Shown here: positions 1 to 30,088 of the stretch, one piece after another
How positions within the stretch are numbered: the stretch's first letter is position 1
Layout: each line of letters opens with the position of its first letter
From: Gammaproteobacteria bacterium
GTDB taxonomy: Bacteria > Pseudomonadota > Gammaproteobacteria > UBA1113
Direction of reading: 5' to 3'
Length of the DNA stretch: 63,704 bases
NCBI GenBank assembly: GCA_021156165.1
Contig: JAJNBM010000003.1
Span: forward strand, 67,817-131,520
Program-made: the position numbers and the translations under genes
Notes under the pieces: model-generated
What the model saw: the letters and a program-made list of their open reading frames with translations, nothing else
Told to the model about the DNA's origin: nothing
The model's database searches: none

Positions 1-2190
1 CGGGTCGTTGGTGTAATCCGTACCCGAAAATAAATACAGTCTAGTATAGCCATCTTGATGCAATAGGTGAGCAATCTCTATTCCTGTTATATTTTCAGTC
101 TTAAATTGGTTATCAATAAGAAATTTGGTATCCTTAGCATAAAGATGCACATTATCTAAAAATTCTTTGGCAGTATAATAGCCGCAAACCTTATAATTTC
201 TATTTACGGAATAGTTAAATATAAAAGTGTCAACAAGTGATTTATAATCATCCACTACAACCAAATCTACAGTTCTTAACTTTTTAACGGCATTGGTTTC
301 GGATGTTTTTATAATTATCTCCACCTCCGATGCCAATGGCTTAGGCAAAATCTTGGTTTCAGTAACTTGGGCTAAATCGCGAATTCTTTGGTTATTATGG
401 TGGCTTGTTACCAAAATAGAACGCTTTACGCCGGTTTGTTTTACTACATCGAGACCATGTAAATTTTGACTCAGTAACTCATAGTCTGTTAACAAAAATA
501 TCTTGTCTTTCTCTTCTGAACTTAAGTGATTCATAAATGAAATGGCCACACGCCCATCTTTAAAATTTTTGCGCTCAATCTCGGGTGCTACTTGATTAAA
601 TCTGGCATCCCAAGCTCCATGGATCGACTCATCATCATCCAGAATGATAATTAAATCATCCTCGCACACTTCAATTTTCTCAGCAATCCAATTCGGCGCT
701 GCAATTTTTGGAAAAGTTAAAATTATTTTTGTTCCAATACCAATAGCAGTTTCTATATTTAAGGTTCCATTATTCTTTGCTAGAGTCGTTCTGATTTGTT
801 CAAACCCAATCCCATGCCCGTCACTTTTGCCAGAGGTCACTGCGGTATTGTTCAAGATATTGGCTTTTACTTCTTCTGGCATACCCTTACCGTTATCTTG
901 TATAATAATTTGCACAGTATTAGCAATTACTTCCAAGGAAGTGATTATTTCACCAATTTTGCCATCAAAAGCCTCTACAGCATTATTAATCAAATTGGAC
1001 ATCATGCGTTTAAATGTCTGCACGTCCACATTTAGAAAAGCGAAATATCCACTTGGACTAATACGAGTTATAAAATCTATCGATAATCGGCTATGTTCAT
1101 ATTTCTTCTCAGTAATAATCTCTAGCAGTTCAGCCGAAATGAGTGTAGAAACAGGAAAAGCTTCATCTGTAGCAACTGCGTCTTTTTTTACTAGTTTAAA
1201 TTGATTCAGTAGATTATTGGCAATATCTAAAATACGTGATGCAGATCTATTTAATGGCACACGCAAGTTTTCCGGTAATTTATTATTACATAATGGTAAA
1301 ATCATCTGTATTGAGGCAATGGGCGAGCGTATATCATGAACGACTTGCTCTACAATCTTTTTGAACTTTTGTTGTTGTTCCTGAACGATTTTATGAGCCT
1401 GATTTTCCAGCGCCAAACGTTCCGCATTCTTACGATCAGTAATATCCATAGATACACCCACGATGCCAATCACATTACCTTTAGAGTCACGAAGCTGACG
1501 TTTAGAAGAAAAAACGTATTTAGTTGTTTCATCTACCGGATTGGTAACAATTTCTTCTCCAGAATAACTTCCATGTTCTAAAACATACTGGTCAACGAGC
1601 TTAAACTTATCCGCTTCTTCTCTAGAGAATATATCATATTCAGTTTTACCGGCAATATCAAAACCCCATATATCTTTTTGGTATTGATTACAGGCAATAT
1701 AAGGCCCATCTTTATGCTTCCAGTAAATGAAGGCAGGAACCAGATCCACTATTTGTGCCGTTTTTAGTTCTTCTTCTCGAATCGCCAGTTGTTTTTCTTG
1801 CTCCATTTTATTTTTTATGTCAGTGATGCGAATCGAGCTTCCAAACACACCAACCACTGCCCCAGTGATATCGAGCAGTCTAGTCTTAGTGCTCAAATAA
1901 TATTCTAGCTGCCCATTGATCGTGGCAGATTCTTCGCCTACAAATGTAGCTTGTTGAATGGCTAGGGCATTGTTTTCTCTCATCTGATCCGCATCTTCTT
2001 TGCTATAAAAATCATAATCCGTTTTGCCTATAACTTGTGACCGATCTGTTAAGCTCAATATTTCAAGATAATGGCGGTTACAGCCCAAATAATGCCCCTC
2101 ACAATCCTTCCAGTAAACCGCAAGATCAATCATATCCAGTAATTGATATACGTCTTCTTTGTCCAGATTTTGCCGTATGACTTGTTGCAT
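1..2190 (-). CDS. Hybrid sensor histidine kinase: PAS-PAS-HisKA-HATPase_c plus two receiver-like domains (3' end runs off the window; absent from the supplied ORF track)
   Basis: My own reverse-strand translation from ATG 2190-2188 stays open for 730 codons to position 1 (MQQVIRQNLDKEDVYQLLDMIDLAVYWKDCEGHYLGCN...). H-box EQVVHDIRSPI (His codon 1338-1336). N-box NLINNAVEAF. G1 QDNGKGMPEE (900-871). G2 GHGIGF. Receiver patterns IIILDDDES..LLTDYEL..ILPKP and LVVVDD..FLIDNQF..LFSG follow. AAGGAG lies 11 nt upstream, inside the NRPS 3' end. Confidence 0.85.
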   Translation of the reverse strand, partial: MQQVIRQNLDKEDVYQLLDMIDLAVYWKDCEGHYLGCNRHYLEILSLTDRSQVIGKTDYDFYSKEDADQMRENNALAIQQATFVGEESATINGQLEYYLSTKTRLLDITGAVVGVFGSSIRITDIKNKMEQEKQLAIREEELKTAQIVDLVPAFIYWKHKDGPYIACNQYQKDIWGFDIAGKTEYDIFSREEADKFKLVDQYVLEHGSYSGEEIVTNPVDETTKYVFSSKRQLRDSKGNVIGIVGVSMDITDRKNAERLALENQAHKIVQEQQQKFKKIVEQVVHDIRSPIASIQMILPLCNNKLPENLRVPLNRSASRILDIANNLLNQFKLVKKDAVATDEAFPVSTLISAELLEIITEKKYEHSRLSIDFITRISPSGYFAFLNVDVQTFKRMMSNLINNAVEAFDGKIGEIITSLEVIANTVQIIIQDNGKGMPEEVKANILNNTAVTSGKSDGHGIGFEQIRTTLAKNNGTLNIETAIGIGTKIILTFPKIAAPNWIAEKIEVCEDDLIIILDDDESIHGAWDARFNQVAPEIERKNFKDGRVAISFMNHLSSEEKDKIFLLTDYELLSQNLHGLDVVKQTGVKRSILVTSHHNNQRIRDLAQVTETKILPKPLASEVEIIIKTSETNAVKKLRTVDLVVVDDYKSLVDTFIFNYSVNRNYKVCGYYTAKEFLDNVHLYAKDTKFLIDNQFKTENITGIEIAHLLHQDGYTRLYLFSGTDYTNDP

Positions 2191-2192
2191 TT

Positions 2193-5100
2193 TTAAACTA
2201 TCTCCTTAAGCAGTTTGCTGGAACTATACCATGAAACAATATTTTTGTATAGTATATCTACTTGATCAAGAAGAGTGAAATGATCTGCTTGCATTTTTAC
2301 TAACTCTATATTGGAAGCATCAATAATTTTATCTATATTATTATAATACAATTCAAGAACATAGTCGCTTTGAAATTTATAATTGTTAAAATATTTCCTC
2401 GTACCATATTGCATGGCTTTAAATAAGATTGCTTCTGAATATAATAATGGAGTGTCGGTAGTCTGTCTGGCTAATTGTATATCACTTGAAATGTTGGTAA
2501 TGATTTTATTAATCAAGTTCTCTTCATAATCTTGGCTTTCCAAAAATTGACGAAACAAAGCATTATCAATTTTTAACATATCGCCATAATAGTAGGATAA
2601 TTGATTATCGGTAAGTGCTGGATCTAGTAGAATGAGCTTAATAGATTGACAACCTTTCCTTTCCAAAATACTGGCCATCTCCAAAGCAATCTGCCCCCCT
2701 AAAGACCAGCCCAACAATAAATACGGTTGTTCAGATTGCTTCGTCATGGCTCTGACTTCATCAATTTCATACAAATAATATAATGCCAACTGATTCAAAT
2801 CTGTCATTTTTTCTTCATGATACAAATTATAATTTTCTATACCATAACAATTAAAGCGACTAGATAATTTGTCCGCTAAGGGTGCATATATTTCAATTCC
2901 CGAAAAAGCCGAGTGTACTATAAATAAATCTGGCTTATTATTATGAACTACACTGAATTTTGTAATCGGTTCAAATTTTGGATTGAAATGAGATACTAGA
3001 TCAGCTATTTTTTCCACTGTCTTTGCTTTAAAGATGTCTGCTATTTTTAACTGCACATCAAAATAAATATTAATTTCATTTAATAACTTAATCGCTGAAA
3101 GACTATCGCCACCTACCATAAAGAAACTATCGTTTTTTCCTACATCAGTTACCGTTTTTTTGCCTAACACCCTTGTGATTATGCTACAAATTTGTTTTTC
3201 ACATTTTGTTACTGGAGCAACATAATGCGCCAATGCTCTTAATTCCATTTTAAGCAAGGCACTTTTATCTAGCTTTCCATTTGTGGTTAAAGGCAAAGAG
3301 CTCAAATACACCAAAATAGTCGGTATCATATATTCAGGTAGTCGTTCATTCAAATAACGGAATAAAGTTGATTCATCTAACTTATAATCAGCGACATAAT
3401 AACCTATAAAATATTTATTACTTTGCCCCTCATCCACTGCCAAAACTACAGCTTGTTTAACTTGCGGATAGCTATAAAGCACAGCTTCAATTTCAGCGAT
3501 TTCCACCCTAAAACCCCGGATTTTTACTTGTGAGTCATTACGACCCATGTATTCTAGATTAAGGTCAGGTCTATAGCGCACTAAATCTCCTGTTTTATAG
3601 AGTCGGTCATTAATATTCTTCTCTTTTTCCTCTTTAGTTTGAAATGGATTTTTTATAAATTTATTTTGAGTTAATTCCGGTAAATTTAAATAACCTCGGG
3701 CTACACCAATGCCACCTATATACAACTCACCCACGGCACCTATGGGTAAAAGACGTCCAACGTCATCTAAAATATAGGCTTTTGTATTTTGAATTGGCTT
3801 ACCTATGAGATGAACTTGCCCATCTATTATTTTACAACCTGAGCAATAGATTGAAGTTTCCGTGGGGCCATAATAGTTAAATAAGTTTTTCTGCGCAGAC
3901 CAATATAAAGCCGTTTCTTTATCACAGGGTTCCCCAGCATAAATCAAATTTATTAAATCTGGATACGCTTGGCGTTTTATTAAAGACAGGATGGCCGGCG
4001 GCAGATAGCATACTTGGATTTTATGACTCAATAAGTAGTCACTTAATAAATTTGCATCTTTTCGTAGTTCATTTGATAATATATGAAGTTCACACCCATT
4101 CAATAAAGTCGCCATCATTTCTGATACTGAAACATCAAATACGTAAGCACAAAAGAATCCCACTTTGCTATTAGGTATTGCTGTATAGATATTTTTTATT
4201 GCAAATACCGTATTTAGAACACCACGGTGTTCAATCGCGACGCCTTTGGGATGGCCGGTAGTACCACTGGTATACATGACATAGGCCAAATGATAACTTT
4301 TCGCCCCTAATTCTGGACTGGCTATTGACTCCTGGCTTAAACAAGCTTGTAGTTTACTATTATCTATCCTTACAACTTCAAGAGACAAATTCCATTCTTT
4401 GAAAAAGGGTGATATCCTTTGCACATGATGTTCATTAGCAATAAGTAGTTTAGTTTTAGTATCTTTTAAAATATAGTGAATTCGCTCCAGAGGATAAGCC
4501 GGATCTATTGGAACATAGGCTGCGCCTGATTTAAGCACAGCAAGAATAGCTATTACCATAGTCTCAGTTCGATCTACACACAAAGCAATTAAGTCTTCTG
4601 GATGAATAGGATGTATGTTTCTTAGATAGTTTGCCAGTTGGTTGGCTTTTGCATTTAATTCCTCGTAAGTTAATTTTATATTTTCATAGACAATTGCAAT
4701 ACGATGAGGTGTTTTTTCCACTTGCTCTTCAAATAACTGCTGAATGGTTTTATCCCTATTACAATCCAGCCTCGGATTATCAAAAGTATAAATTAATTTG
4801 TTAAAGTCTACTTCATCTAAGCGCATTTTGTTTCTGGAATAGATTATATCTTGCAAACTTATTTTTAAATATTTAACAAAATATTCTAAATAGTCCGAAT
4901 CAACATATTCATCACTTACACTAATTTCCAATTTAAAATCATTACCATTTTGACGGTTCACACTTAATACAAAAGGAATATTGGTTTTGACATATTCTTC
5001 CAGTTTAACGATGGCATCTGATCTTTGTTGCAGGACATCAAAATTTGTAAAATTAAATACAAAGCTATATAAATCATGTCCAAGCATAGACTTGATATGT

Positions 5101-8100
5101 CCATAAGGCATATGCTTATATGGGCGTATTTTCACCTTTGTATCAAATGCCAACTGTATCCCAGAATCATTATCCCGTACTTCATTTAATTTAACTCTAA
5201 ATGGAATGGTATTCACAAACAAGCCAAATAATTCTTCACCCCCTTTTTGCTCGGGCCGATTGTTAACAACAAGCCCAATTGTAATATCATCATTATTCAA
5301 TAAAAAAGCTAAGGTTTTTATGTAAGCCCATAAAAAAACGCTGTCTACACTAACCTCGTTTTTATTCGCCAGTCTAAGTATACCTTGGCTCTCTTCCGAA
5401 GATAAACTAAATGACGCGCCAAGCAGTGCATTTTTTGACTTGGCATTTGTAAAATTCCATTTTATATTAGGCGCAGACACTTCATCTAAATATTCTTTCC
5501 AAAAATCAATTGTAAAAGTGTTATTAATTATAGCCAACTCATGTTTTACAAATTGCCCATAACATAAAGAACTTACTAATGGTTTAATAGGTTTATCGTA
5601 AACATAAGCTTGAGCAAATTCGTTTATTAGCATGGTCACACTCCAACCATCATTTATACTATGGTGACTGGAAAAAATGAAAGAGAACTTTTCATTTAAA
5701 TTGTTCACAATTAATCTAAACAATCCTGTCTTAGCACAGTTTACCGGGTTGTTACGTTCTTGATTAACTAATGTCTCAATATCTGCAGCGCGATGAATGA
5801 TAATCTGGATATAGTCTAATTTCTTTTTAACAATGGCGTTATAGCCATCGACCGTGCTTTTCACAAACCTTGCTCTTAACAATTCATGCTTTTGAGTTAA
5901 GTGATTCCAAACCTCTCTAAATTTACTTTCATTAAACGGCTTATTAACCATATAGCAGAATAAATTGTGATAGGTGGTTTTTTCACTGTGTAATTCCGAT
6001 TCTAATAACATGCCGGCTTGCAGATAACTAGCAGGATAAATATCCTCGACATTATCATCCAGCAGAAAATCTTTGTTTAAATTAATCAAGCTAAATTTAA
6101 CATATTCCTCGGGTACCTCTAACCCATCCTTTGAACCAGCAATAAAATCAGACAAATTAGAAACGTTTTTAGCCTCAAAGACGTTTTTAACAGTTATATT
6201 TCTATTAAAATCTGCTTTCAACCTGTTCGCCAACTTAATAGCCAGGATGCTATCTCCCCCTAATTTAAAAAAGCTATCATAAATACTAATTTGCTCGGAG
6301 TTGAGGCTTAACACTTCAGCATAAATCGCACATAACTGAACGTCTAATTCATGTCTCGGTGCGCTATAGGCTACATTACGCTTCAATTTTGGCTCTGGCA
6401 ATGCATTTCTATCAACTTTACCATTCAACGTCAGTGGTAGCTGCTTTAAATTCATTAAAGCAGCCGGAACCATGTAATTGGGAAGTCGTTGCTCCAAATA
6501 GTTTAGAAGGATTTCTTCATTTATTTGAATGTCCGACACATAATAAGCTGCTATATATTTGTTGTTGTGGCTATAAGAGTCAGTTTCATGTGTTTTCGCA
6601 ACAACAATGGCTTGTTTTATGTTCGGATACAGCAACAATATGGCTTCTATTTCGCCAGGTTCAACCCTAAACCCCCGAATTTTTAACTGACCGTCATCCC
6701 TACCAATATATTCTACGTTTCCGTCTGAACTATAACGAACCCAATCACCTGTTTTATAGAGACGATTATTTTTATGCGCAAATCTCTCTTCATCACTTTG
6801 GAAGGGATTATTAATAAATTTTTCTTTAGTTAGATCTGGTAAGTTTAGATAGCCTCGGGCTACTCCAATACCGCCTATATACAATTCACCCGCAGCGCCA
6901 ATAGGTACAGGATTGCCAATACCATCTAAAATATAGGCTTTTGCATTATGAATTGGCTTACCGATGAAATGAATTTGTCCATTCATTATTTTACAGCCTA
7001 AACAATAGATAGATGCCTCCGTTGGCCCATAGTAGTTAAATAAGTTTTTCTGTTTAGACCAGTATAAGCCAGTCTCTTTATCACACGGCTCTCCAGCATA
7101 CATCACATTGATTAAATCTGGGTACTCCTGACGTTTCATTAGGGATAAGAGTGCGGGTGGCAGATAACACACCTGAATTTTGTTAAGCAATAAATAGTCA
7201 CTTAATAGCGACACGTCTTTTCTCAGCTCATTGGATAATATATGGAGCTCACATCCATTCAGTAAAGGCCCCATCATTTCCGCTACTGAAACATCAAATA
7301 CATAAGAACAAAAAAAGGTAGTTTTGCTATTATCCACTACCGTATAGATATTTCTTATTGAGAATATTGTATTAACCACGCTTACATGTTCGACCATGAC
7401 ACCTTTAGGGCTGCCTGTAGTGCCACTGGTATACATGGTATAGGCCAAATGATTGCTTTTGGTACTGGACTGTGGATTCATTATTAACTTTTTAAATAAG
7501 TGTATTTGGGATTCACAATTATCAATCATAAAAATATCAAGAGATAAATCGTATTCTTTGCAAAAAGAAACCATTTTCTGTGCATGACGTTCATTTGTAA
7601 TTAATAGTTTAGGCCTAGTATCTTCCAGAATATAACGGATTCGCTCCATAGGATAATCTGGATCCAAGGGCACATAAGCTGCGCCTGATTTAAGCACGGC
7701 AAGAATAGCTATTATCATAGCCTCCGATCTATCTACGCATAAAGCAATTAAATCATCTGCTTTTATAGTATAGGTACTCTTCAGATAATGGGCTAATTGA
7801 TTTGCTCTTATGTTTAACTCATTATAGGTGAGTTTAATATTTTCATAGACAACAGCAATATTGTTAGGTGTTTTTATGACTTGCTCTTCAAACAATTGGT
7901 GGATGGTTTTATCTGTTGGAGAATCCATCTCAGTTTTATTCCACCCATAAACTATTTTCTGATACTCCGTATCCGTTAGTAGACTAATCGTACTCAAATC
8001 TTCATAGATAATAGGCTTATCCAATAGCACCCCTAAACAGTTGGCAATACTATTTATTTGCAGTTGATATACGCTATTACCACTGATTTTGAGCGCGCGG

Positions 8101-9509
8101 CCTTCTATGTTTATATACATTTTATGTCTATCAATATGCTCATCCGTTCTATGAAATGTTATGGCAATATCGGTCAACAATGATAAATGATGCCTATAAC
8201 CAAAGTCTTTCATTAAAAGATAGCAATTGTCTTTTAGCTGGTTTAAAGAGTCGGTTAACTCAGTAAAAGACTGAGCCAAGGTATTTCGACTAGCCCGTAT
8301 AAAATGACGTTTTTCTACAAGATTTTTCAGGGTTCTAGGTATGGTTTCATCAAAATTATATAAAGACAAAATAAAATCTTCATGAAAAAACCTAACTAAC
8401 ACAATGTAAATGATAGTTAGAGCCATGCTATTGCTAATCGAATCTGCTATAATAATATCTTTTGTATAATCATCTAAAGAATCACTTCCTATCGCATGAT
8501 TAAGAATTAATCTAGACGCATCGGCTTTATCTATAAATTCGCTGATTTGTTGCTTATATTTTGGTTCAAGCATTTTAACATTGGATATATACGACAAATC
8601 ATCCTGGCTTAATCTATATGGTTTTGATAGGAGAGTAGGTGTAATCGCCATATTGGTCTTATGACCATAAATATCTAGAGCAGTATTGAAAACATTTTCT
8701 TTTACATATTCTTTAAATTTACCAGACTTAAATAAGTTTCTATTTGGATCCTCTAGTATATAAAATCTATCATTTACAAAAATCTTAACGCTAGCCACTG
8801 AATTAACATATCCCTCGCCAAAAGTTAATCCCCGCACTAATTTATCTAAAGTAGCTAAGTCCTCGATTCCATTGACAAGTCCGTAATTCTCTGGGATATG
8901 TCTTAATCCATAGTAAGTTCTGTTTAATATATTTTGTTTGAACGTAGACAATGTCCCTGTATTAATCCTATTTATTGCCTCTTGAAATAAAGTGAGGAGG
9001 CTTTCGCTACATTTTAAATTTAATGATATCGTGGTTTCGTTCTCTTCAATTGGAACCGCAGATTGCAACGCGATATCCCCAGCATCAATCGCAGAGGTTA
9101 TGCAATGCAATGTAACTCCATGCGTTTTTTCGCCATTAATAATCGCCCAGGTGGTACTATTCACACCGGCATAGCGAGGCAGTAAGCTATCATGGTAGTT
9201 CAGTGCCAAAGTTATCTTATTTTGCTGAAAAAAGGATTCGGGAATTACATGCGGATTAGCAATACTAAAAAAATAAAACTTATTGTTATTAATTTCGGCT
9301 AAGCTGGCAAAGGGCAAAACCAAAATTGAATTCTGATTGCACCATTTAACAACAGTTCGATCGTTTGATATAACAGAGACTATTTCCCAACTGTTATCCC
9401 TTAATAGATGCTCTATACATTGGATACATAATTTTGTTTCACCTATTATTAATACTTTCTTTTTAAATAGTAATTCTCTAGAAGTATTCATATTAGCTAA
9501 ATACCACAC
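2193..9509 (-). CDS. Non-ribosomal peptide synthetase, F-(linker)-A-T-C-A-T-TE (N-terminal formyltransferase domain, two modules, terminal thioesterase)
   Basis: 2438-aa ORF. Formyltransferase motifs LALNYHDSLLPRYAG and IDAGDI. A1 motifs LAYTMYTSGTTGSPKGV, FNYYGPTE, GELYIGGIGVARGYLN, YKTGDWVRY, LKIRGFRVEPGEIE, NGKVDR. T1 LGGDS (6263-6249). C domain HHSINDGW (5666-5643). A2 LAYVMYTSGTTGHPKGV..NGKLDK. T2 VGGDS (3116-3101). TE GWSLGG (2714-2695) and a late DHF. Start is uncertain: GTG at 9509 or ATG at 9491. Confidence 0.93.
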   Translation of the reverse strand: MWYLANMNTSRELLFKKKVLIIGETKLCIQCIEHLLRDNSWEIVSVISNDRTVVKWCNQNSILVLPFASLAEINNNKFYFFSIANPHVIPESFFQQNKITLALNYHDSLLPRYAGVNSTTWAIINGEKTHGVTLHCITSAIDAGDIALQSAVPIEENETTISLNLKCSESLLTLFQEAINRINTGTLSTFKQNILNRTYYGLRHIPENYGLVNGIEDLATLDKLVRGLTFGEGYVNSVASVKIFVNDRFYILEDPNRNLFKSGKFKEYVKENVFNTALDIYGHKTNMAITPTLLSKPYRLSQDDLSYISNVKMLEPKYKQQISEFIDKADASRLILNHAIGSDSLDDYTKDIIIADSISNSMALTIIYIVLVRFFHEDFILSLYNFDETIPRTLKNLVEKRHFIRASRNTLAQSFTELTDSLNQLKDNCYLLMKDFGYRHHLSLLTDIAITFHRTDEHIDRHKMYINIEGRALKISGNSVYQLQINSIANCLGVLLDKPIIYEDLSTISLLTDTEYQKIVYGWNKTEMDSPTDKTIHQLFEEQVIKTPNNIAVVYENIKLTYNELNIRANQLAHYLKSTYTIKADDLIALCVDRSEAMIIAILAVLKSGAAYVPLDPDYPMERIRYILEDTRPKLLITNERHAQKMVSFCKEYDLSLDIFMIDNCESQIHLFKKLIMNPQSSTKSNHLAYTMYTSGTTGSPKGVMVEHVSVVNTIFSIRNIYTVVDNSKTTFFCSYVFDVSVAEMMGPLLNGCELHILSNELRKDVSLLSDYLLLNKIQVCYLPPALLSLMKRQEYPDLINVMYAGEPCDKETGLYWSKQKNLFNYYGPTEASIYCLGCKIMNGQIHFIGKPIHNAKAYILDGIGNPVPIGAAGELYIGGIGVARGYLNLPDLTKEKFINNPFQSDEERFAHKNNRLYKTGDWVRYSSDGNVEYIGRDDGQLKIRGFRVEPGEIEAILLLYPNIKQAIVVAKTHETDSYSHNNKYIAAYYVSDIQINEEILLNYLEQRLPNYMVPAALMNLKQLPLTLNGKVDRNALPEPKLKRNVAYSAPRHELDVQLCAIYAEVLSLNSEQISIYDSFFKLGGDSILAIKLANRLKADFNRNITVKNVFEAKNVSNLSDFIAGSKDGLEVPEEYVKFSLINLNKDFLLDDNVEDIYPASYLQAGMLLESELHSEKTTYHNLFCYMVNKPFNESKFREVWNHLTQKHELLRARFVKSTVDGYNAIVKKKLDYIQIIIHRAADIETLVNQERNNPVNCAKTGLFRLIVNNLNEKFSFIFSSHHSINDGWSVTMLINEFAQAYVYDKPIKPLVSSLCYGQFVKHELAIINNTFTIDFWKEYLDEVSAPNIKWNFTNAKSKNALLGASFSLSSEESQGILRLANKNEVSVDSVFLWAYIKTLAFLLNNDDITIGLVVNNRPEQKGGEELFGLFVNTIPFRVKLNEVRDNDSGIQLAFDTKVKIRPYKHMPYGHIKSMLGHDLYSFVFNFTNFDVLQQRSDAIVKLEEYVKTNIPFVLSVNRQNGNDFKLEISVSDEYVDSDYLEYFVKYLKISLQDIIYSRNKMRLDEVDFNKLIYTFDNPRLDCNRDKTIQQLFEEQVEKTPHRIAIVYENIKLTYEELNAKANQLANYLRNIHPIHPEDLIALCVDRTETMVIAILAVLKSGAAYVPIDPAYPLERIHYILKDTKTKLLIANEHHVQRISPFFKEWNLSLEVVRIDNSKLQACLSQESIASPELGAKSYHLAYVMYTSGTTGHPKGVAIEHRGVLNTVFAIKNIYTAIPNSKVGFFCAYVFDVSVSEMMATLLNGCELHILSNELRKDANLLSDYLLSHKIQVCYLPPAILSLIKRQAYPDLINLIYAGEPCDKETALYWSAQKNLFNYYGPTETSIYCSGCKIIDGQVHLIGKPIQNTKAYILDDVGRLLPIGAVGELYIGGIGVARGYLNLPELTQNKFIKNPFQTKEEKEKNINDRLYKTGDLVRYRPDLNLEYMGRNDSQVKIRGFRVEIAEIEAVLYSYPQVKQAVVLAVDEGQSNKYFIGYYVADYKLDESTLFRYLNERLPEYMIPTILVYLSSLPLTTNGKLDKSALLKMELRALAHYVAPVTKCEKQICSIITRVLGKKTVTDVGKNDSFFMVGGDSLSAIKLLNEINIYFDVQLKIADIFKAKTVEKIADLVSHFNPKFEPITKFSVVHNNKPDLFIVHSAFSGIEIYAPLADKLSSRFNCYGIENYNLYHEEKMTDLNQLALYYLYEIDEVRAMTKQSEQPYLLLGWSLGGQIALEMASILERKGCQSIKLILLDPALTDNQLSYYYGDMLKIDNALFRQFLESQDYEENLINKIITNISSDIQLARQTTDTPLLYSEAILFKAMQYGTRKYFNNYKFQSDYVLELYYNNIDKIIDASNIELVKMQADHFTLLDQVDILYKNIVSWYSSSKLLKEIV

Positions 9510-9698
9510 TAATAAACATATTACCTACCTTAAACATTATAATTTATTATACTAACTATGATATGCCTTTATCCTAGAACATTTAACTACCATAATAATA
9601 TAAGCGTTAGTAGATAATAATAGCACGATTTACTGCTAATATTCAACTTAATCAGCAGAAACGTGAAGTCTGTCTCGAGCGGGGGTTGGATATAAGCA

Positions 9699-10529
9699 TT
9701 AAAATGGATCTGCTAACTCTTCTGCTGCGGACTCATCCATAACCTCATCCAGCACCAATCCTTTTTCTAATTCTTTAAACGGCCAGAGATCTTTATCCAT
9801 TAACTGACTAGGCCGGATATTCCCTAAAGCACTCAAAGCATTGCTAGGCACTTTAGGATTTTCAGTTGTTAAAGTTTTCATTAACGCCGCTATTTTTTTA
9901 CGCGTTAGTTTTTCTTGTGAACCACATAAGGTGCAAGGAATGATAGGGAAATTTTGTTCGCCCGCATAAGTAATAATATCTTTTTCTTGGCAATAGACCA
10001 TAGGGCGAATTAAGATGTGGCGTTTATCATCGGTTAACAGTTTAGGCGGCATAGAACGAATTTCGCCACTGTACAGTATAGACATTAACAAGGTATTCAC
10101 TAAATCGTCGCGGTGATGTCCTAAAGCAATTTTAGTAAATCCGTTTTCTTTGGCATAAGTGTAAATATTGCCACGGCGTAAGCGCGAGCACAAAGAACAA
10201 TACGTTTTGCCTTCTGGTATTTTTTCTTTGACTATAGAATAGGTATCGCGACGCAATACTTCATAGGAAATACGGCGCTGCTCCATCCATGCCCGCAAAC
10301 CGCTGTCATCCCAACCCGGTTGCGCTTGATCCAAGGTAAAAGAAAACAATTCAAAACGATTATTTGAATTGATGCGGAGTTGTTCCAACAGACACAATAA
10401 AGTAAAAGAATCTTTTCCGCCGGATAAACACACCATAACGCGATCACCTTTTTGGATCATGTTGTAATCGCTGATTGCCTTACCTGTATAATGTAATAAT
10501 TTTTTTTCAATTTTGCTATTTGTAAACAT
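9699..10529 (-). CDS. ttcA: tRNA 2-thiocytidine(32) synthetase TtcA
   Basis: PP-loop [16 protein letters not shown] cysteine motif, and a second CTLCGS cluster. Size (276 aa) is typical. Confidence 0.85.
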
Positions 10530-12006
10530 TTTTTCTCTGAATATATTCTTTCAACCTTCCCACATCTATTTCCTCTGCACACAAACCTAAACGCGTACGC
10601 CGCCATAATAGATCATCCACGCTCTTAACCCATTCTTGTGCCAGTAGATAATCCACTTCCACTTGATAAAGGCCCGCGCCAAAATCTATGCCTAGATCTG
10701 CCAAAATATTTTTGCCTCGGAGCCAAAACAGGCACAGTGTACCATAGCAGCGCAAATAACGCGATAATACTGGCATCGGCATAAAAGAATAATCTTGCCT
10801 AAATTGCACTTCGTCTAATAAATCGCTTCCCGGTAAAGGAATGGTTTCATCCTTTATGGCAGGCCAACATGGCCTTATTTTTTGCAGTAAAATCAATGCA
10901 TCTAGCGCCAAACGTCTATGCGTGGTTAATTTACCCCCCAAAACAGTCAATACGCTATTACCCTTTACACTGGTTTGTAATTGCAATTGATAATCACGTG
11001 ATAATTGATGCGCATTGTGTATCTCATCATCCAATAATGGCCTAATGCCAGAAAAGGTAGTAGCAATATCCTGTCTTTCAAAGGGCGTTTGCATATAGGC
11101 ATTGGCGGCAGCTAACAAATATTCTATTTCTGCTGGCTCTATAGAATGATCGTCTAAAGGTCCGTGATACTCTAATTCGGTTGTTCCCAATAAACAATAC
11201 CCCGGTTCATAAGGCGTTAAAAAAATAACGCGGCCATCCGCACATTCAAATAAATATGCCTTGTTGTCGGGCAATTCTCTTTTTAGCACTAAATGGCTGC
11301 CCTTGACTAAACGCAATTTAGCGGTAGGCCATTCTGCTAAATAGTGCTTTTGAAATTGTTCAACCCAAGGGCCTGTGGCGTTGATTAAAATATTAGCCTT
11401 ATAGGTGCTGCATTGTTGACTAAACTTATCTTCTGTTACCACTTGCCAGCCGCTTCCTGCTTCCGTCAATTCTAGAATGGTATGATACGTTAAGATGGTT
11501 GCCTGATATTGTTTAGCCAATAAGGCCCACTCCACCACTAAACGGCTATCGTGCGTCCAGGCATCACTGTAAATGGCTCCACTTTTAATACTTTTCTTGA
11601 AGAAAGGTCGATATGGCGCAACATTTAAACGGATGCTCTTCGCTTTTTCCAACCCCTTGTGTGCACTTAAATGATCATAAATAAATAAACCTATGCGGAT
11701 CACCAAACGCCGTAAAGCACTTTCTTTATAATACGGAATAATAAATCGCACAGGTTTGATCAAATGCGGTGCCATTTTAATCAATAGACTACGTTCATGC
11801 AGTGCTTTTTTGACTAATGAGAAATAATATTGCTGCAGATAACGCAATCCGCCATGAATGAGTTGCGTGCTTTTGCTAGAGGTTCCCGAGGCTAGGTCGT
11901 TTTGTTCAATCAGAACCACTTTTAAGCCTAAACGCGCCGCTTGCCCGGCTATGGCCACACCATTAATGCCACCGCCTATGATAATGATATCTTTTTTTTC
12001 GACCAT
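10516..12006 (-). CDS. glpD: FAD-dependent glycerol-3-phosphate dehydrogenase
   Basis: N-terminal dinucleotide fold [24 protein letters not shown]; 496 aa. Its start overlaps the stop of the upstream phosphodiesterase gene (TAATG). Confidence 0.8.
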
Positions 12007-12746
12007 TATGAAGCAACCCTAGATAATAATAACGGATCGTCGGAGAAAATACCGTCTACTCCACTTGAAAATAACTCTTCAGCACGTGCTACGCTATTAA
12101 CAGTATAAGCCAAAACACTGTACTTACTTTGTTTTAAAAGACTTAAACGTTTTTGTGTTAAAATCTTTTCATTGCAATGAATGCTAACCGCATTTAAGAA
12201 AACAGCCACCCTTTCCCACTCACTTAACCAACGCGACAACAAAAAACCTAAATCCACTTCAGGGGCATACTGCCTATACCACTTCAAAGCATCTAGTTCA
12301 AAGCTAGATATCAAAATAGGGATATGCTTTAAATAGGGCTCTATCACTTTATAGCTGTATTCGGCCGTTTCCTTGGCATATTCTGGCAATGCAGGCTTAA
12401 TTTCTATGTTGACCCCCCGACCGTACCGTACAGCGAGTTCTAATAATTCTTCTAATTTGGGCACAGAAGTATGAGCATAATCTTTAGAAAAATAACGCCC
12501 TACATTATAGTTTCGCAAATCAGCGTAATTTAATTTATCTATGTCCGCATGTAGGCGCGCGGTACGCCATAGATCTCTATCGTGCAAAATCACTGGCACG
12601 TGATCCGCGGTTAATACTACATCGCATTCCACCCAAGCCGCACCCATTTCATACGCCAAGGCAAATGCAGGCAAAGTATTTTCAGGAGCCAATAAATTAG
12701 CGCCTCTATGTGCAATTAATTTAGGTTTAGTTTGAAAGATAGTCAT
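12006..12746 (-). CDS. ugpQ: Glycerophosphodiester phosphodiesterase (GDPD family)
   Basis: AHRGANLLAPENTLPAF and ECDV motifs typical of the GDPD fold; sits next to glpD. Confidence 0.8.
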   Translation of the reverse strand: MTIFQTKPKLIAHRGANLLAPENTLPAFALAYEMGAAWVECDVVLTADHVPVILHDRDLWRTARLHADIDKLNYADLRNYNVGRYFSKDYAHTSVPKLEELLELAVRYGRGVNIEIKPALPEYAKETAEYSYKVIEPYLKHIPILISSFELDALKWYRQYAPEVDLGFLLSRWLSEWERVAVFLNAVSIHCNEKILTQKRLSLLKQSKYSVLAYTVNSVARAEELFSSGVDGIFSDDPLLLSRVAS

Positions 12747-13230
12747 ATAATTGTCTTAAAGCAAATTCTACACAGGCCCCGCGTACCGCTTGTCTCTCGC
12801 CCGGAAAATGCTTGTTGTACACTTTAACGCCTTTCTCGCCACCAGCAATCGCAAAATACACTGTACCTACGGGCTTATCTACACTACCCCCGCTGGGTCC
12901 GGCAATGCCACTAACGGCCACACTAATATGTGCACAACTCTGCTTTAAAGCCCCTACAGCCATTTCCGCGACTACACTACCACTCACTGCACCGTGTACA
13001 ATTAAAGTATCCGCTTGCACGCCCAACATCTCTATTTTTGCCTCATTGCTGTAAGTCACAAAACCGCGCTCAAACCATTGCGAACTGTTGGCTACCGCCG
13101 TTATTATTTGCGCAATATAACCGCCAGTACAAGATTCTGCCGTAGCCAACATCAGACTGCGATGCTGCAACAACGCCCCTAGTTTTTGTGATAAATCATA
13201 TAATACTTGCTGATTCATGGCTCTATACAC
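12727..13230 (-). CDS. pncC: CinA-family nicotinamide-nucleotide amidohydrolase (PncC-type, C-terminal domain only)
   Basis: ATAESCTGGYIAQ motif, SGIAGPSGG, 167 aa. Confidence 0.8.
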   Translation of the reverse strand: MYRAMNQQVLYDLSQKLGALLQHRSLMLATAESCTGGYIAQIITAVANSSQWFERGFVTYSNEAKIEMLGVQADTLIVHGAVSGSVVAEMAVGALKQSCAHISVAVSGIAGPSGGSVDKPVGTVYFAIAGGEKGVKVYNKHFPGERQAVRGACVEFALRQLYDYLSN

Positions 13231-14455
13231 TTTCTGTTAAATTATACGCGCCACGAAAGCAGTGTAGATTCTGGCTGCGCCATAACATGTATAAGCCCGG
13301 TATACAAATAATCGTACTTACCCAATAAAAATCAGCCCATCCTAGATGCTGCACCAATACGCCCGAGGTCGAACCCACTAAGACTCGGCCTACAGTCGCA
13401 ATAGCCGACAAACTGGCATATTGCATTGCCGTAAATTTGGGGTTACACAGGCTCATTAAAAAAGCAACAAAAGCAGCGCTAGACATACCGCCACAGAAGT
13501 TTTCCGCAAAAATACAAAAACCGGCTAAGATCATATTTTTGCCGACTATCGCCATCACCACAAACAAAATATTGCTTAAAGCCGCTAAAATTCCAAAAGT
13601 TAACAATGAATAAAATAACCCTAAACGCATCATCCACAAACCGCCAACGATGCCGCCTATGATAATAGCGCTTAAACCAACCACTTTGTTCAACAAAGCC
13701 ACTTCGCTTAAAGTAAAATGCAAGCCGCGCAACAAAAAAGGTGTTGTCAGGGATAACGCATAAGCCTCACCTAGTTTATAAAATACAATCACAGCAATAA
13801 GCCACAAGGCATTAGACCTTTTTAAAAAGTCTTGTATAGGCCCAACGAAAGCGTCGCGCAAAGTCGTAGGCTGTTTTAACATCTTAGGTTCGGGCGTGAA
13901 AAAAGTAAGCATGGAACAAGCAAACAGGATTAAGGCCATGATTTTATAAGTATAACCCCAACCTATGCGATCCGCTAATAACAAAGCCATTGCACCGGCA
14001 ATGAGTAAAGCGAAACGGTATCCTGTCACATTCAGTGCCGCACCTAAGCCGCGGTCTTTAGGGGATAAAATTTCTGTACGATAAGCATCTACAGCAATAT
14101 CTTGGGTAGATGAAAAGAACGCTAATATCGCGCCTAAACCCATCAATAAACCTGGGTTTTGTGCGGGATGCAAATAAGACATAGTCCATAATACGACAAT
14201 TAAGGCCAATTGCATGGTGACAATCCAACTTTTACGCCGCCCTAAGGAATATAAAGTTAAACGATCTAATAAAGGGGCCCATAACCATTTCAGTACATAA
14301 GGTAAACCAATGATATTAATAAAGCCCAGTAGAATAATGCCTAAATTTTCTTCGGTAAACCAAGCTTGCAAGGTGCTACTGCACAAGGCTATAGGTAAAC
14401 CAGAAGATATCCCTAATAGAACGACGCTATAATAGTGAGTGCGGGCAGTAGACAT
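13223..14455 (-). CDS. ampG: AmpG-family muropeptide MFS permease
   Basis: LGISSGLPIALCSSTLQAWFTE and multi-TM MFS pattern. The track ORF starts at 14488 inside a repeat. ATG at 14455 has AGGAGA 5 nt upstream (MSTARTHYYS...). Confidence 0.8.
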   Translation of the reverse strand: MSTARTHYYSVVLLGISSGLPIALCSSTLQAWFTEENLGIILLGFINIIGLPYVLKWLWAPLLDRLTLYSLGRRKSWIVTMQLALIVVLWTMSYLHPAQNPGLLMGLGAILAFFSSTQDIAVDAYRTEILSPKDRGLGAALNVTGYRFALLIAGAMALLLADRIGWGYTYKIMALILFACSMLTFFTPEPKMLKQPTTLRDAFVGPIQDFLKRSNALWLIAVIVFYKLGEAYALSLTTPFLLRGLHFTLSEVALLNKVVGLSAIIIGGIVGGLWMMRLGLFYSLLTFGILAALSNILFVVMAIVGKNMILAGFCIFAENFCGGMSSAAFVAFLMSLCNPKFTAMQYASLSAIATVGRVLVGSTSGVLVQHLGWADFYWVSTIICIPGLYMLWRSQNLHCFRGAYNLTESV

Positions 14456-14468
14456 AATTTCTCCTAAC

Positions 14469-14648
14469 CCGTCATTGCGAGCCCACAAGCGCCAGCGAGT
14501 GGGCGTGGCAATCCAGGGTAAAAATCCTATTTCTATGAGGTTTCTAGCTTTTTATTCACCCTCAGCGTAAACAGCAACTCACTTCATCACTTAAGATTTT
14601 CCTGGATTGCCGCGCCTGTTCGCTGCGCTCACGGGCTCGCAATGACGG
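14469..14648. repeat. MITE-like element, family 1 (GTCATTGCGAGC termini), long-TIR variant
   Basis: Left end CCCGTCATTGCGAGCCCACAAGCGCC...GGCAATCCAGGG. Right end CCTGGATTGCCGCGCC...GGGCTCGCAATGACGG. These are imperfect ~48-bp inverted termini; related copies lie at 52403 and 53461. Confidence 0.8.
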
Positions 14649-14703
14649 TACAGTGCGACTCAATACATTAGAGGCGAGTCATACCCGCCTCTTACAAAAA
14701 AAC

Positions 14704-15660
14704 CTAAGCCTTCTTAACCGTTGCCGCCTTCTGGCTCATTGCAGTATTTGCTGGCTTAACATCAATTAAATGAATTTTAAAAATTAATGTTTGGTTAGGG
14801 CCTATAGGGCCGCCCACACCTTGTGCACCATAAGCCAACTGAGATGGCACGTAAATTTCCCAAACATCCCCTACCTTCATGTGGGTTAAGGCTTCCTGCC
14901 AGCCCGGAATCACCTCGGCTACTTTGAAGGAAACCGGTTGCCCTTGCTTATAGGAACTGTCAAACACCGTGCCATCGATCAAACGTCCTTCATAATCCAC
15001 TGTAACGGTGTCATTGCTTGTAGGCATAGCACCCGTACCTGTGGTTAAACTACGATATTGCAAGCCATCCGGCATTGTTTGCACACCCTGCTTGGTTTTA
15101 TTAGCGGCTAAGAATGCAGCCCCCTCTTTAGCATTTTTATCGGCTGCCGCTTTTTGTTGAGCTTCTGCTTGTTGGCGATTTTGAGCTTGTTTGGCATATA
15201 AGACCTTCTTGAAGTCATCTATGGATTGCTTCATTTGCGCGTCGGTTAATAAAAATGGTCCACCTGCCAAGCCATCGGTAATACCGCGGGCAAAGAGTTG
15301 GGGATTCATGGTTAAACTCTGTTCTTTGAGGTTACGGCCCATATCAGCTCCTAAAGTATAGCTGATTTTGTCGTTATCGCTCATTGTAGTCCCTGGAGTA
15401 GCGGATTGTGCCTTTTTTGCAGCTGGCATTGTTGTTGTAGAGACAGTTGCTGCAGGTTGTGGGTTAGCAGCAGGCGCCGTGGGTGCGGTTATAGTTACAG
15501 ACTGCATACCAGCAGGTACTGTTGCCGTGGTTACAGGCATAGATTGTACGTTATTCGTAGCTGGATTGGTTTCATTTTGCGCAGAAGATGACGCCGGTGC
15601 AGCATAAGCCATCCCGCTCACCATGCCGACTAGAACTAGTGCAAGTTGCGTTCGTTTCAT
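14704..15660 (-). CDS. mip: Mip-like FKBP-type peptidyl-prolyl cis-trans isomerase with signal peptide and a Pro/Thr/Ala-rich N-terminal spacer
   Basis: Signal peptide MKRTQLALVLVGMVSGMAYA. Mip-type dimerisation helix (SYTLGADMG..FARGI..). C-terminal FKBP domain (VTVDYEGRLIDGTVFDSS..VIPGWQEAL..LIFKIHLIDV). Confidence 0.88.
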   Translation of the reverse strand: MKRTQLALVLVGMVSGMAYAAPASSSAQNETNPATNNVQSMPVTTATVPAGMQSVTITAPTAPAANPQPAATVSTTTMPAAKKAQSATPGTTMSDNDKISYTLGADMGRNLKEQSLTMNPQLFARGITDGLAGGPFLLTDAQMKQSIDDFKKVLYAKQAQNRQQAEAQQKAAADKNAKEGAAFLAANKTKQGVQTMPDGLQYRSLTTGTGAMPTSNDTVTVDYEGRLIDGTVFDSSYKQGQPVSFKVAEVIPGWQEALTHMKVGDVWEIYVPSQLAYGAQGVGGPIGPNQTLIFKIHLIDVKPANTAMSQKAATVKKA

Positions 15661-15807
15661 TATTCATTCCCCATTTGAGTTAAGTTTAACTGCCTCATCT
15701 TGATACAGTGTATAGGACAGACAATTGTACATCTGACACGCCCATTCTGCACTATTTTAAACAGATTGTGAATCCCCTTTTGTCATTATTTTGATGTATA
15801 CTTTACC

Positions 15808-15969
15808 AGGACCTGTAGCCATTTTGTTTCTCAAAGCGAAAAATGAATAAAGCCAGGCAAAATGTTAGCAAATTTGAGTAGAATATTGGGCAATATTTGA
15901 GGAAAATTAGCTAATATCTGGACTGCTTTATTCATTTTGCAACCGATAAACCAAATGGCTACAGGCCCT
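15808..15969. repeat. MITE-like element, family 3 (TIR GGNCCTGTAGCCATTTKGTTT)
   Basis: AGGACCTGTAGCCATTTTGTTT at the left end and AAACCAAATGGCTACAGGCCCT at the right end are inverted copies. A short relative lies at 23841-23903. Confidence 0.7.
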
Positions 15970-16009
15970 AAACCATAATTATCCAAAATCTAAAGGAGAT
16001 TTTTAGGCG

Positions 16010-17170: not shown

Positions 17171-17175
17171 ACTGA

Positions 17176-27460: not shown

Positions 27461-27490
27461 ATTTTAGTCTCCTGAATATGGCTGCGTAAA

Positions 27491-27620
27491 ATATACTCAT
27501 AGCAGTTGATTTTTAGGCGAGGCGCTAGCCCTCTAGCACCAGGAGTGACGTACTCCGTCATATACTAGAGCGAGATGGGCGTAGGCAACAAAGCCTAAAA
27601 ATCAAATGCGAAGAGTATAT
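27491..27620. repeat. MITE-like element, family 2 (28-bp TIR ATATACTCWTMGCAKTTGATTTTTAGGC)
   Basis: Begins ATATACTCATAGCAGTTGATTTTTAGGC and ends GCCTAAAAATCAAATGCGAAGAGTATAT. Same core as the copies at 29714, 29939, 30166 and 57646. Confidence 0.85.
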
Positions 27621-29203: not shown

Positions 29204-29290
29204 GCCGGAGTGGCGAAATTGGTAGACGCGCCGGACTCAAAATCCGGTGGTGGCAACACCGTGTCGGTTCGAGTCCGACCCCCGGCACCA
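29204..29290 (+). tRNA. tRNA-Leu (anticodon CAA)
   Basis: GCCGGAGTGGCGAAATTGGTAGACGCGCCGGACTCAAAATCCGG + long variable arm + GTCGGTTCGAGTCCGAC + CCCCGGCACCA. One A-C mismatch in the acceptor stem; CCA is encoded. Confidence 0.9.
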
Positions 29291-29293
29291 TCT

Positions 29294-29608: not shown

Positions 29609-29635
29609 GGCTTTTTTATTTAATAATACTAAAGT

Positions 29636-29712
29636 TGGGGTGAACGATGGGGCTCGAACCCACGACAACCGGAATCACAATCCGGGGCTCTACCAACTGA
29701 GCTACGTCCACC
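29636..29712 (-). tRNA. tRNA-His (anticodon GTG)
   Basis: Reverse complement GGTGGACGTAGCTCAGTTGGTAGAGCCCCGGATTGTGATTCCGG..GTGGGTTCGAGCCCCATCGTTCACCCCA. The extra 5' G(-1) typical of tRNA-His is present. Confidence 0.92.
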
Positions 29713-29713
29713 A

Positions 29714-29845: not shown

Positions 29846-29848
29846 TTT

Positions 29849-29925: not shown

Positions 29926-29938
29926 TTTAAAACCTAGT

Positions 29939-30064: not shown

Positions 30065-30088
30065 TATGCGCTAACCGCAAAAAATTGA

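Follow-up and report, generated by a model that had tools for sequence, protein, structure and literature searches.

What would a two-module nonribosomal peptide synthetase (NRPS) that opens with a formyltransferase domain make in a Legionellaceae-like bacterium, and what would its product be for? The question is raised by a gene on a 63,704-nucleotide stretch of DNA from a Gammaproteobacteria bacterium (GTDB lineage UBA1113; assembly GCA_021156165.1, contig JAJNBM010000003.1, positions 67,817 to 131,520 of the forward strand), the whole of which we call the window. The NRPS gene is followed directly by a gene for a soluble hybrid sensor histidine kinase with PAS domains, and the sequence of their junction indicates that the two are a co-transcribed, translationally coupled two-gene cassette. 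Our reading, to which we give a probability of roughly 55%, is that the first gene encodes an N-formyl dipeptide synthetase that works as a unit with its PAS kinase. NRPSs of the formylating kind are already known in Legionella from genome mining; the hard-wired kinase is the main new point.

The architecture of the synthetase is F-C*-A-T-C-A-T-TE, i.e. a formyltransferase (F) with both N- and C-terminal subdomains, a condensation-domain lobe (C*), an adenylation (A) and a carrier (T) domain, a full condensation (C) domain, a second A-T pair, and a thioesterase (TE) (Table 1). Across the 2438-residue protein, Pfam detects Formyl_trans_N, two copies each of AMP-binding, AMP-binding_C, and PP-binding, one Condensation (residues 1154-1556), and one Thioesterase (residues 2194-2425); AMP-binding scores 510.6 bits, and the NCBIfam model TIGR01733 scores 821.5 bits against a cut-off of 317.4. 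The sequence features of a modular type I NRPS are thus in place, namely A domains, two carrier serines, a C domain with HHxxxDG, and a TE triad, together with the core A motifs YTSGTTG(S/H)PKG, YKTGD, and NGK(V/L)D. A check of motif positions found all catalytic motifs intact, including those quoted in the initial annotation of this gene: LALNYHDSLLPRYAG (N104 and H106), IDAGDI (D142), both carrier serines, SHHSINDG, and GWSLGG. That annotation had proposed the order F-A-T-C-A-T-TE with a linker of ~230 residues after the F domain; the order holds, and the supposed linker is a folded C-domain lobe by Foldseek and hhalign. A stop-free frame of 7.3 kb at 34% GC is not expected by chance. Within it we prefer ATG 9491 over GTG 9509 as the start, since homologues begin at the position of Met7. 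The exact protein is present in NCBI nr on one contig of 131.5 kb, and as had been supposed it has no near-identical homologue: its 90% cluster otherwise holds just a 73-residue fragment, and the best relative, at locus L085, is 60% identical over the N-terminal 531 residues.

The kinase begins with an ATG 2 nt past the NRPS stop codon, and an AAGGAG Shine-Dalgarno sequence lies within the last NRPS codons. Pfam finds two PAS_4 domains, HisKA, and HATPase_c, which are followed by a receiver-like C-terminal region; no hydrophobic N-terminal segment was seen on reading the kinase sequence, which opens with a PAS domain. The coordinates reported in the initial annotation missed this gene, the sole conserved partner of the family. 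Relatives were collected by an alignment-based scan of one genome per species, a contig scan with the single protein having given one irrelevant match. A same-strand kinase lies directly downstream of the NRPS at 13 loci (L001, L085, L087, L088, L089, L092, L093, L094, L116, L118, L120, L125, and L156), with full-length orthologues that are 31-47% identical. The kinase follows the NRPS in all eight close relatives in which the NRPS end is visible, despite their differing downstream modules, and an all-against-all comparison of neighbors reveals it as the only gene family common to the 13 loci; across the same loci there is no conserved exporter, phosphopantetheinyl transferase (PPTase), MbtH, regulator, or self-resistance neighbor. 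Five Legionella loci (L. feeleii, L. tunisiensis, and Legionella sp. metagenome-assembled genomes) carry a divergent upstream PAS kinase. When the scan was reversed to start from the kinase, NRPS domains appeared directly upstream or fused in 13 further contigs; the contexts of P0005 and P0008 added nothing on the kinase. The PAS domains diverge faster than the kinase core. We give no weight to this as a hint of ligand specificity, since sensor domains in general behave in that way.

At six or more loci, drawn from four assemblies, the two genes are merged into a single stop-free frame (Table 1), and fusion of genes is a classical sign that their products act jointly. Our literature search returned no description of NRPS-kinase fusions or of F domains joined to truncated C domains. 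The codes of the kinase-coupled modules include those for Tyr, Val, Phe, and Orn, Gln-like and Thr-like ones, and others that are unassigned, and several genomes hold two or three such cassettes. The conservation of a bacterial kinase points to a bacterial signaling or regulatory role and suggests that the cassette is a signaling unit, not an isolated gene for a toxin or an antibiotic.

Is the N-terminal domain a genuine formyltransferase? Formyl_trans_N matches residues 88-169 with 64.5 bits (cut-off 26.1). The best solved matches by phmmer are the sugar N-formyltransferases 7n7a and 5uij (1e-17, 66-67 bits), with alignments that extend to residues 246-273, ahead of ArnA (56 bits), Fmt (44), PurN (41), and LgrA (29). 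N104, H106, and D142 are in register with the Asn/His/Asp of 7n7a and are invariant in 10 family members, so the alignment of the catalytic residues anticipated in the initial annotation is borne out. Formyl_trans_C is detected by Pfam at the equivalent place in the relatives P0011 and P0014 and in the L145 open reading frame (ORF). An AlphaFold2 model of residues 1-531 (pLDDT 82, pTM 0.74) has a pLDDT of ~90 over the catalytic part of F, and the top Foldseek matches of the F part are WlaRD, Fmt, and ArnA, spanning both subdomains and whole Fmt/ArnA chains; LgrA is not among the top 50 matches of the model. By these comparisons the domain is a bona fide formyltransferase, LgrA-like in fold only, and we infer its formylation chemistry from its sequence. 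The earlier likening to LgrA therefore stands for the fold and the triad, while a specific relation to LgrA falls away (29 bits vs 67 to the sugar N-formyltransferases). To our knowledge, structural knowledge of F domains comes from LgrA alone. F domains formylate the T-bound first residue and take the position of the C domain on the A domain (PMC10510592), and formyl caps derived from them are known for three peptides, linear gramicidin, anabaenopeptilides, and kolossin A (2022 review, PMC8949500).

The region between F and A1 (residues 291-525) has no Pfam match of its own and no HHxxxDG motif. An exhaustive HMMER search of 1.84 billion representative proteins returned 29 matches. In 27 of these the matching stretch comes immediately before the first A domain, in proteins of NRPS size or in N-terminally cut fragments, and an F domain precedes the lobe wherever the N-terminus is present; the remaining two are restricted to the C-A linker at its end (~40 residues) and fall within the interior of large NRPSs. 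In the AlphaFold2 model the region has a pLDDT of 78, and its Foldseek matches listed down to E ~1e-3 all belong to the C superfamily: SrfA-C (8e-6), the RzmA starter C, the LgrA C, and PvdL, with further matches to an X domain, a terminal C_T domain, and the C-family protein CmnI. Distant relatives keep a spacer of ~950 nt between F and A, and three of them score Pfam Condensation from position 190/191, to 454-456 of 456 in two and to 342 in a truncated third; this span is the half after HHxxxDG. An hhalign comparison of C* with relatives whose lobe is detectable by Pfam gave 89.9% probability (E 1.7e-6, 222 columns). The Foldseek and hhalign results identify residues 291-525 as a C-terminal condensation lobe plus C-A linker. 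Compared by hhalign with the C domain of the same gene, the lobe reached 0.3% probability, in what is a poor test since the C set is mostly N-lobe. The lobe probably keeps the C-A platform and the docking site for T1, with F replacing the catalytic N-lobe. Some kinase-coupled relatives have a full N-terminal C domain (L169, L178, and L197); we considered whether the lobe derives from the starter C domains found in the kinase-coupled C-A-T-R proteins (R, reductase) and dropped the idea, as just the last 46 residues align.

Table 1. Features of the NRPS-kinase cassette in the window and, in the last six lines, synthetase-kinase fusions at other loci (positions there are those of the locus). HK, histidine kinase.
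Feature	Position	Strand	Details
NRPS gene	2193..9509	(-)	2438 codons from GTG 9509; ORF listing and translation
Probable true NRPS start	ATG 9491		Met7, giving 2432 aa; upstream sequence and homologue starts
F, catalytic N-terminal subdomain	8895..9467	(-)	residues ~15-205; N104, H106, D142, HDSLLPRYAG folate-site motif
F, C-terminal subdomain, Fmt/ArnA type	8640..8894	(-)	residues ~206-290; alignments, relatives' Pfam matches, Foldseek
C*, relic condensation-domain C-terminal lobe	7935..8639	(-)	residues ~291-525; ends in C-A linker LLTDTEYQKIVYGWNKTE
A1 adenylation	6390..7925	(-)	residues ~529-1040; code DVAYMAYIYK; Pfam AMP-binding, AMP-binding_C, TIGR01733
T1 carrier	6135..6347	(-)	Ser1087 in FFKLGGDSI; Pfam PP-binding 1058-1123
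C condensation	4785..6050	(-)	residues ~1154-1575; SHHSINDG; Pfam Condensation 155 bits
A2 adenylation	3255..4733	(-)	residues ~1593-2085; code DVSYIAYIYK; Pfam best stretch 1593-1941
T2 carrier	3000..3212	(-)	Ser2136 in FFMVGGDSL; second Pfam PP-binding stretch
TE	2235..2930	(-)	residues 2194-2425; S2269 (GWSLGG), D2296, H2410; Pfam 64 bits
Soluble hybrid sensor histidine kinase gene	1..2190	(-)	730 codons visible; runs off the window start
AT-rich intergenic region ttcA-NRPS	9510..9698	(-)	synteny with closest relatives stops here
L145 fusion	9974-16537		F-A-T-TE-PAS-PAS-HisKA-HATPase-REC-Hpt, 2188 aa
L168 fusion	5489-11983		F-A-T-R-PAS-HK, 2165 aa
L169 fusion	5603-11932		C-A-T-R-PAS-HK, 2110 aa
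L171 fusion	5798-11860		A-T-R-PAS-HK, N-terminal region without Pfam match, 2021 aa
L196 fusion	728-6394		stop-free across A, T, and kinase matches; at least 1889 aa, to locus end; no Pfam scan
L197 fusion	5516-11359		C-A-T-R-PAS-HK, at least 1948 aa, to locus end

What, then, would the synthetase make? The ten-residue A-domain codes were pulled out by MAFFT alignment, and the extraction is sound, since applied to other members of the family it yields the textbook codes of Cys (DLYNLSLIWK), Thr (DFWNIGMVHK), Ser (DVWHFSLIDK), Gly (DILQLGLIWK), and Val (DAFWLGGTFK). The codes of A1 and A2 are non-canonical, and both begin with D and end with K (Asp235 and Lys517). Codes of this type recur in A2 of L085, in A1 of L091, and in P0123, P0137, and L169, and a literature search for the two codes or close variants found none. 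The nearest canonical codes in our own comparison, those of Pro (6/10) and Tyr (5/10), are not close enough to assign a substrate. Because modules 1 and 2 are 60% identical (369/615, BLASTP), the two residues are probably the same or similar. The C domain has the motif residues H1282/H1283, D1287, and G1288, and a domain scan detected no epimerization domain in this NRPS. In the TE, D2296 lies 27 residues past S2269 and H2410 completes the triad; head-to-tail cyclization is impossible with a formyl-blocked N-terminus, so that hydrolysis is the simplest release. No PPTase gene was found among the scanned ORFs; Legionella species have a single Sfp-type PPTase elsewhere in the genome (PMC5126622).

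From these parts we propose a mechanism in which A1 would load an alpha-amino acid onto T1 and the F domain would formylate the T1-bound amino group from N10-formyl-tetrahydrofolate. A2 would charge T2 with a second, similar residue, to which the C domain would then couple the formyl-aminoacyl donor, and the TE would free the N-formyl dipeptide, most simply by hydrolysis. A TE-released N-formylated dipeptide, the product named in the initial annotation, stays the straightforward prediction from the domain order and the intact motifs. The PAS domains would most likely read the N-formyl product, or the flux through its synthesis, and pass the information to a phosphorelay, which is the direction and nature that we propose for the link between NRPS and kinase.

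Several points weigh against this reading. On the side of the enzyme, the A codes are non-canonical, the resemblance to Pro falls below what is reliable, and formylation of a secondary amine would be unusual; the nearest solved relative of the C domain is from a dehydrating clade, so that the product may not be a plain dipeptide; hydrolytic release by the TE is assumed; and neither a PPTase nor an exporter adjoins the cassette. On the side of the kinase, six orthologue loci have unrelated upstream genes, and the family is not NRPS-exclusive, so that the tie, though strong, has exceptions. Nor is the pairing universal, being absent in L097-L103 and in the cyanobacterial and Bacteroidales members. 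The fusions come from metagenome assemblies, in which a stop lost by sequencing error is possible in any single case, and the cue for a PAS domain is often light, oxygen, or redox state rather than the product of a gene neighbor. Finally, where synthase and receptor are one protein, classic cell-to-cell signaling would be bypassed, which favors intracellular sensing or regulation over quorum sensing.

The evidence on the place of action leans both ways: intracellular sensing is suggested by the solubility of the kinase, by the fusions, and by the lack of an exporter, a secreted signal by the dedicated, unusual dipeptide. We tentatively consider a wider reading as well, in which these loci make up an undescribed class of signaling module, with an N-capping NRPS or NRPS-like enzyme, whose product would be a formyl- or acyl-capped amino acid, aldehyde, or short peptide, wired through translational coupling or fusion to a soluble PAS hybrid kinase that takes this product as its ligand, and with the pairing of F domain and lobe as a second, LgrA-independent recruitment of formylation. 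In such a class the window's F-C*-A-T-C-A-T-TE protein and its kinase would be the dipeptide-making member.

A rather unlikely alternative is that the cassette senses metabolic state, with the NRPS turning amino acid, ATP, and formyl-tetrahydrofolate into a short-lived ligand for the attached PAS kinase. The A domain would set the specificity, e.g. for amino-acid or one-carbon availability, on which differentiation depends in Legionella-type bacteria. Fusion in at least six loci fits such a local hand-over better than export and re-import, and a kinase that opens with PAS, with no membrane segment seen on reading its sequence, is consistent with it, as are the ordinary amino-acid codes of kinase-coupled modules, the two or three cassettes in several genomes, and the lack of a conserved exporter beside the cassette. 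Against this, the proposal is pure inference with no precedent known to us, a 270-kDa bimodular enzyme is costly as a sensor, and a dipeptide of unusual residues, as predicted for the window, is more like a dedicated metabolite.

The product could also be directed at a host or a competitor, as a formyl-peptide-receptor ligand, a protease inhibitor, or an antimicrobial, with the kinase just timing its production; we regard this as unlikely. The organism is Legionellaceae-like, the cassettes of relatives have as neighbors ankyrin and OTU genes of the sort usual in intracellular bacteria, and many family members end in a reductase, which would give reactive N-capped amino aldehydes. Moreover, a mollusc Fmt-A-T-R enzyme is predicted to make N-formyl-tyrosinol, a precursor of the bioactive bursatellins, although only a T-R fragment was assayed successfully (PMC11869996). 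On the other hand, the sequence indicates no host target, a synthetase-kinase fusion is hard to explain if the kinase is a transcriptional switch only, and no conserved export or self-resistance gene lies nearby. Potent agonists of formyl-peptide receptors are usually N-formyl-Met peptides longer than two residues. The suggestion in the initial annotation that the product is a ligand of these host receptors finds no support here and stays speculative, and the conserved kinase points instead to bacterial signaling or regulation.

It is improbable, in our estimate, that the C domain dehydrates as well as condenses, in the manner of the CmodAA domains, to give an N-formyl dehydroamino-acyl dipeptide. 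Its closest solved relative in a phmmer search of the PDB is the C domain of McyA module 2 (8jbr, 2.9e-40, with the next at 4.7e-25), an identification that rests on our reading of the C-A-T layout of 8jbr. T1 carries GGDSI, which is typical of carriers feeding E, DCL, or dehydrating domains, and in L085 the homologous C domain (42% identical) is preceded by an A domain with a Thr-like code (DVWNIAMIHK). Among the founding members of CmodAA is the microcystin C domain (PMC10880069); the signature of the clade is [K/R]SVLLAAH before motif C5 together with an Arg at the start of C6, with the signature His present in 48 of 50 members (PMC11342130). In the window this signature reads DSVFLWAY and in L085 DTIFLEAY, so that the basic residue and the His are lost in both; the RR pair of motif C6 is KH in the window, and the A1 code is neither Ser- nor Thr-like. 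With its signature residues missing, a dehydrating C domain is not supported by the sequence, and we have downgraded it.

The setting of the cassette bears on its origin. Its flanks are ttcA and glpD (TtcA 393.9 bits, cut-off 272; GlpD 530.4 bits, cut-off 360), beyond which lie genes for a glycerophosphodiesterase, PncC, AmpG, and a Mip-like FKBP. Positions 1-9698 of the window have a GC content of 0.347, vs 0.419 elsewhere in it; the NRPS gene stands at 0.343 with a third-position value (GC3) of 0.30, compared with 0.391/0.365 for ttcA and 0.414/0.382 for glpD. The L085 cassette has the same contrast (0.343 vs 0.406), and other AT-rich stretches also occur within the window. TtcA is ~70-74% identical to that of named Legionella species and 94% and 92% identical to that of two uncultured 'Proteobacteria' genomes, BP5.bin43 and BP9.bin76. 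Both closest contigs (L005 and L006) are colinear with the window by blastn from 18200 down to 9698, and the colinearity ends at the ttcA stop (9698-9700), where they have other genes and no NRPS. The flanks of the L085 cassette have nothing in common with the window. The AT-richness, the absence after ttcA in the nearest genomes, and the different context of L085 together make acquisition, or at least mobility, of the cassette well supported. The AT-richness relative to the flanks reported in the initial annotation is thus real, if modest, and the horizontal acquisition suggested there is supported to the same degree; of the insert named there one edge only is visible, because the window ends inside the next gene. 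Decay or silence of the acquired gene, for which its AT-richness, its absence from this locus in the nearest relatives, and the many fragmented or split metagenomic homologues could be cited, is very improbable, as the 7.3-kb stop-free frame, the intact catalytic motifs, and the coupled intact kinase argue for selection, and short or low-coverage contigs account for the fragments.

Upstream of the NRPS gene, a consensus scan picks out a promoter-like site, TTGAAT-18-TATTAT with TG, at 9646-9617; counts from the promoter and terminator scan are no higher than in shuffled controls, and we do not use it as evidence. An 8-codon upstream ORF occupies 9493-9519 (-), with ATG 9519, the translation MFISVVFS, and stop TAA 9495-9493, and a good Shine-Dalgarno sequence, AGGTAGG, precedes it. 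This ORF ends 1 nt ahead of the likely NRPS start at ATG 9491, and it could be a leader peptide, a re-initiation arrangement, or a chance occurrence.

Elsewhere in the window, no tRNA gene lies nearer than 29 kb to the cassette, and the tRNA cluster at 29204-30162 (Leu-CAA, His-GTG, Arg-TCT, Pro-TGG) is too far off to be its integration site. A dispersed repeat of ~135 bp (27488-27619 and 57668-57797) is 82% and 74% identical to L005 9853-9988, where it is intergenic. Between the Mip-like gene and ampG, a 52-bp block (14596-14647) is 96% identical to L006 4536-4587, vs ~75-87% around it, and could be a conserved terminator or a small RNA. A second AT-rich stretch (33813-37774) encodes a POT-family peptide transporter and two ORFs with no Pfam match (35215-36531 and 36560-37774); together with an ankyrin-repeat ORF (43008-44021) it amounts to effector-like content typical of intracellular bacteria. 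A squalene/phytoene-synthase-family ORF (42146-42955) overlaps the end of mutS (39717-42149) by four bases.

The F-C* arrangement is spread well beyond the window. The whole region (residues ~15-531) occurs in 19 loci, with hosts that include Legionellales, Coxiellaceae, assemblies labelled Neisseria and Burkholderiales, Chlamydiales, Bacteroidales, and Fastidiosibacter lacustris; an F domain and a spacer of the same length before A are also found in Legionella feeleii, L. tunisiensis, Tatlockia, Rickettsiaceae, and cyanobacteria. The modules downstream vary, being a reductase only, C-A-T-R, polyketide synthase modules, or an undetected stretch, possibly a Cy domain, followed by A(Cys)-T. The L085 protein is F-C*-A-T-C-A(methyltransferase insert)-T-TE. 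Its insert of ~440 residues in the second A domain (~16170-17500) has the S-adenosylmethionine-methyltransferase motif VLEIGCGNG and probably N-methylates the second residue; it is missing from the window gene. In the cultured Fastidiosibacter lacustris NBRC 112274, locus L099 has an F-C*-A-T gene (1578-6392), 32-40% identical by segment and in a kinase-free neighborhood, which makes it a possible experimental handle on the F-C* chimera. Relatives with the order F-C*-A-T-R (P0125, P0130, P0131, and P0136, all metagenomic) are ~1520-1560 residues long.

These observations point to a second design for formylation, in which an enzyme like the sugar formyltransferases has been joined to a condensation domain's C-terminal lobe, and which is common in Legionellales and in further bacteria, most of them uncultured. 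It hints at a natural route by which NRPS engineers might exchange an N-acyl cap for a formyl cap while the C-A platform is kept. The kinase coupling makes testable the proposal of a 2016 genome-mining paper that small nonribosomal products serve as signals in Legionella-type bacteria. If the link between NRPS and kinase is true, the cassettes would be a family of paired signal or sensor units in which the adenylation domain would set the specificity.

How does the cassette compare with known systems? LgrA shares with the window NRPS an N-terminal formyltransferase fold with an Asn-His-Asp triad, placed before a first A-T and then C-A-T, and the expected chemistry would be the same, with the first residue formylated on its T domain ahead of the first condensation (PMC10510592). 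The F domain of LgrA has 193 residues (~24 kDa) and sits directly on its A domain, which begins at residue 198-200, whereas A1 of the window NRPS begins at ~529 after ~525 residues that comprise a full two-subdomain formyltransferase and a condensation lobe, an element that LgrA lacks. LgrA also passes its product to further synthetases and is without a partner kinase, while the window NRPS ends in a TE and has one. In lipoinitiation modules with a starter C domain (RzmA, SrfA-A), the N-terminus of the first residue is capped at the same position as in F-C*, and the RzmA starter C is among the best structural matches of the lobe; here, in contrast, the N-lobe with HHxxxDG is replaced by a formyltransferase, and the cap is a formyl group from folate rather than an acyl group from CoA or an acyl carrier protein. 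AusA (A-T-C-A-T-R) is likewise a stand-alone bimodular NRPS with a small dipeptide-derived product, and it is the top NCBIfam match of the window NRPS (934.7 bits, far under the AusA cut-off of 2500), but it is without an F domain. AusA releases a dipeptide aldehyde that cyclizes to a pyrazinone, which a formyl-blocked N-terminus cannot do.

Closer in host is the N-formylating monomodular NRPS 'cluster C' predicted in Legionella by Tobias et al. in 2016, who noted a clustered regulator gene and suggested signaling compounds (PMC5126622). Formylating NRPSs had thus already been mined from Legionella, so that the type is no novelty in this group, although none of its products has been characterized. 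Set together with the window NRPS by description only, cluster C comes from the same bacterial group, is N-formylating, and is without a known product; it has one module and a reductase where the window NRPS has two modules and a TE, and its paper makes no mention of a kinase or sensor, a condensation-lobe relic, or a fusion (PMC5126622). The mollusc Fmt-A-T-R enzyme (~180 kDa) also joins a formylation domain to A-T, is predicted to yield an N-formyl amino alcohol, and has bacterial-like features for which its authors consider an ancient transfer possible (PMC11869996). Unlike the window NRPS, it is animal-encoded, single-module, Tyr-activating, reductively releasing, and kinase-free. The metagenomic proteins P0125, P0130, P0131, and P0136 have the domain order and nearly the size of the mollusc enzyme, and by architecture and size alone the bacterial F-C*-A-T-R family may be the source of the mollusc gene.

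For the pairing of synthase and sensor, the nearest parallels are LqsA-LqsS of Legionella and CqsA-CqsS of Vibrio, in which, as in the window, the gene for a small-molecule synthase lies beside that for a sensor feeding a phosphorelay. PAS domains are known to bind small amino-acid-derived signals, DPO-VqmA being an example of a signal bound by a PAS domain. The Lqs and Cqs synthases are pyridoxal phosphate-dependent and their sensors are membrane proteins, whereas the window pairs an NRPS with a soluble kinase; fusion of synthase and sensor is foreign to them, and they have no sequence relationship to the window pair. The resemblance to the Lqs and Cqs systems lies in a possible mode of action, not in family membership.

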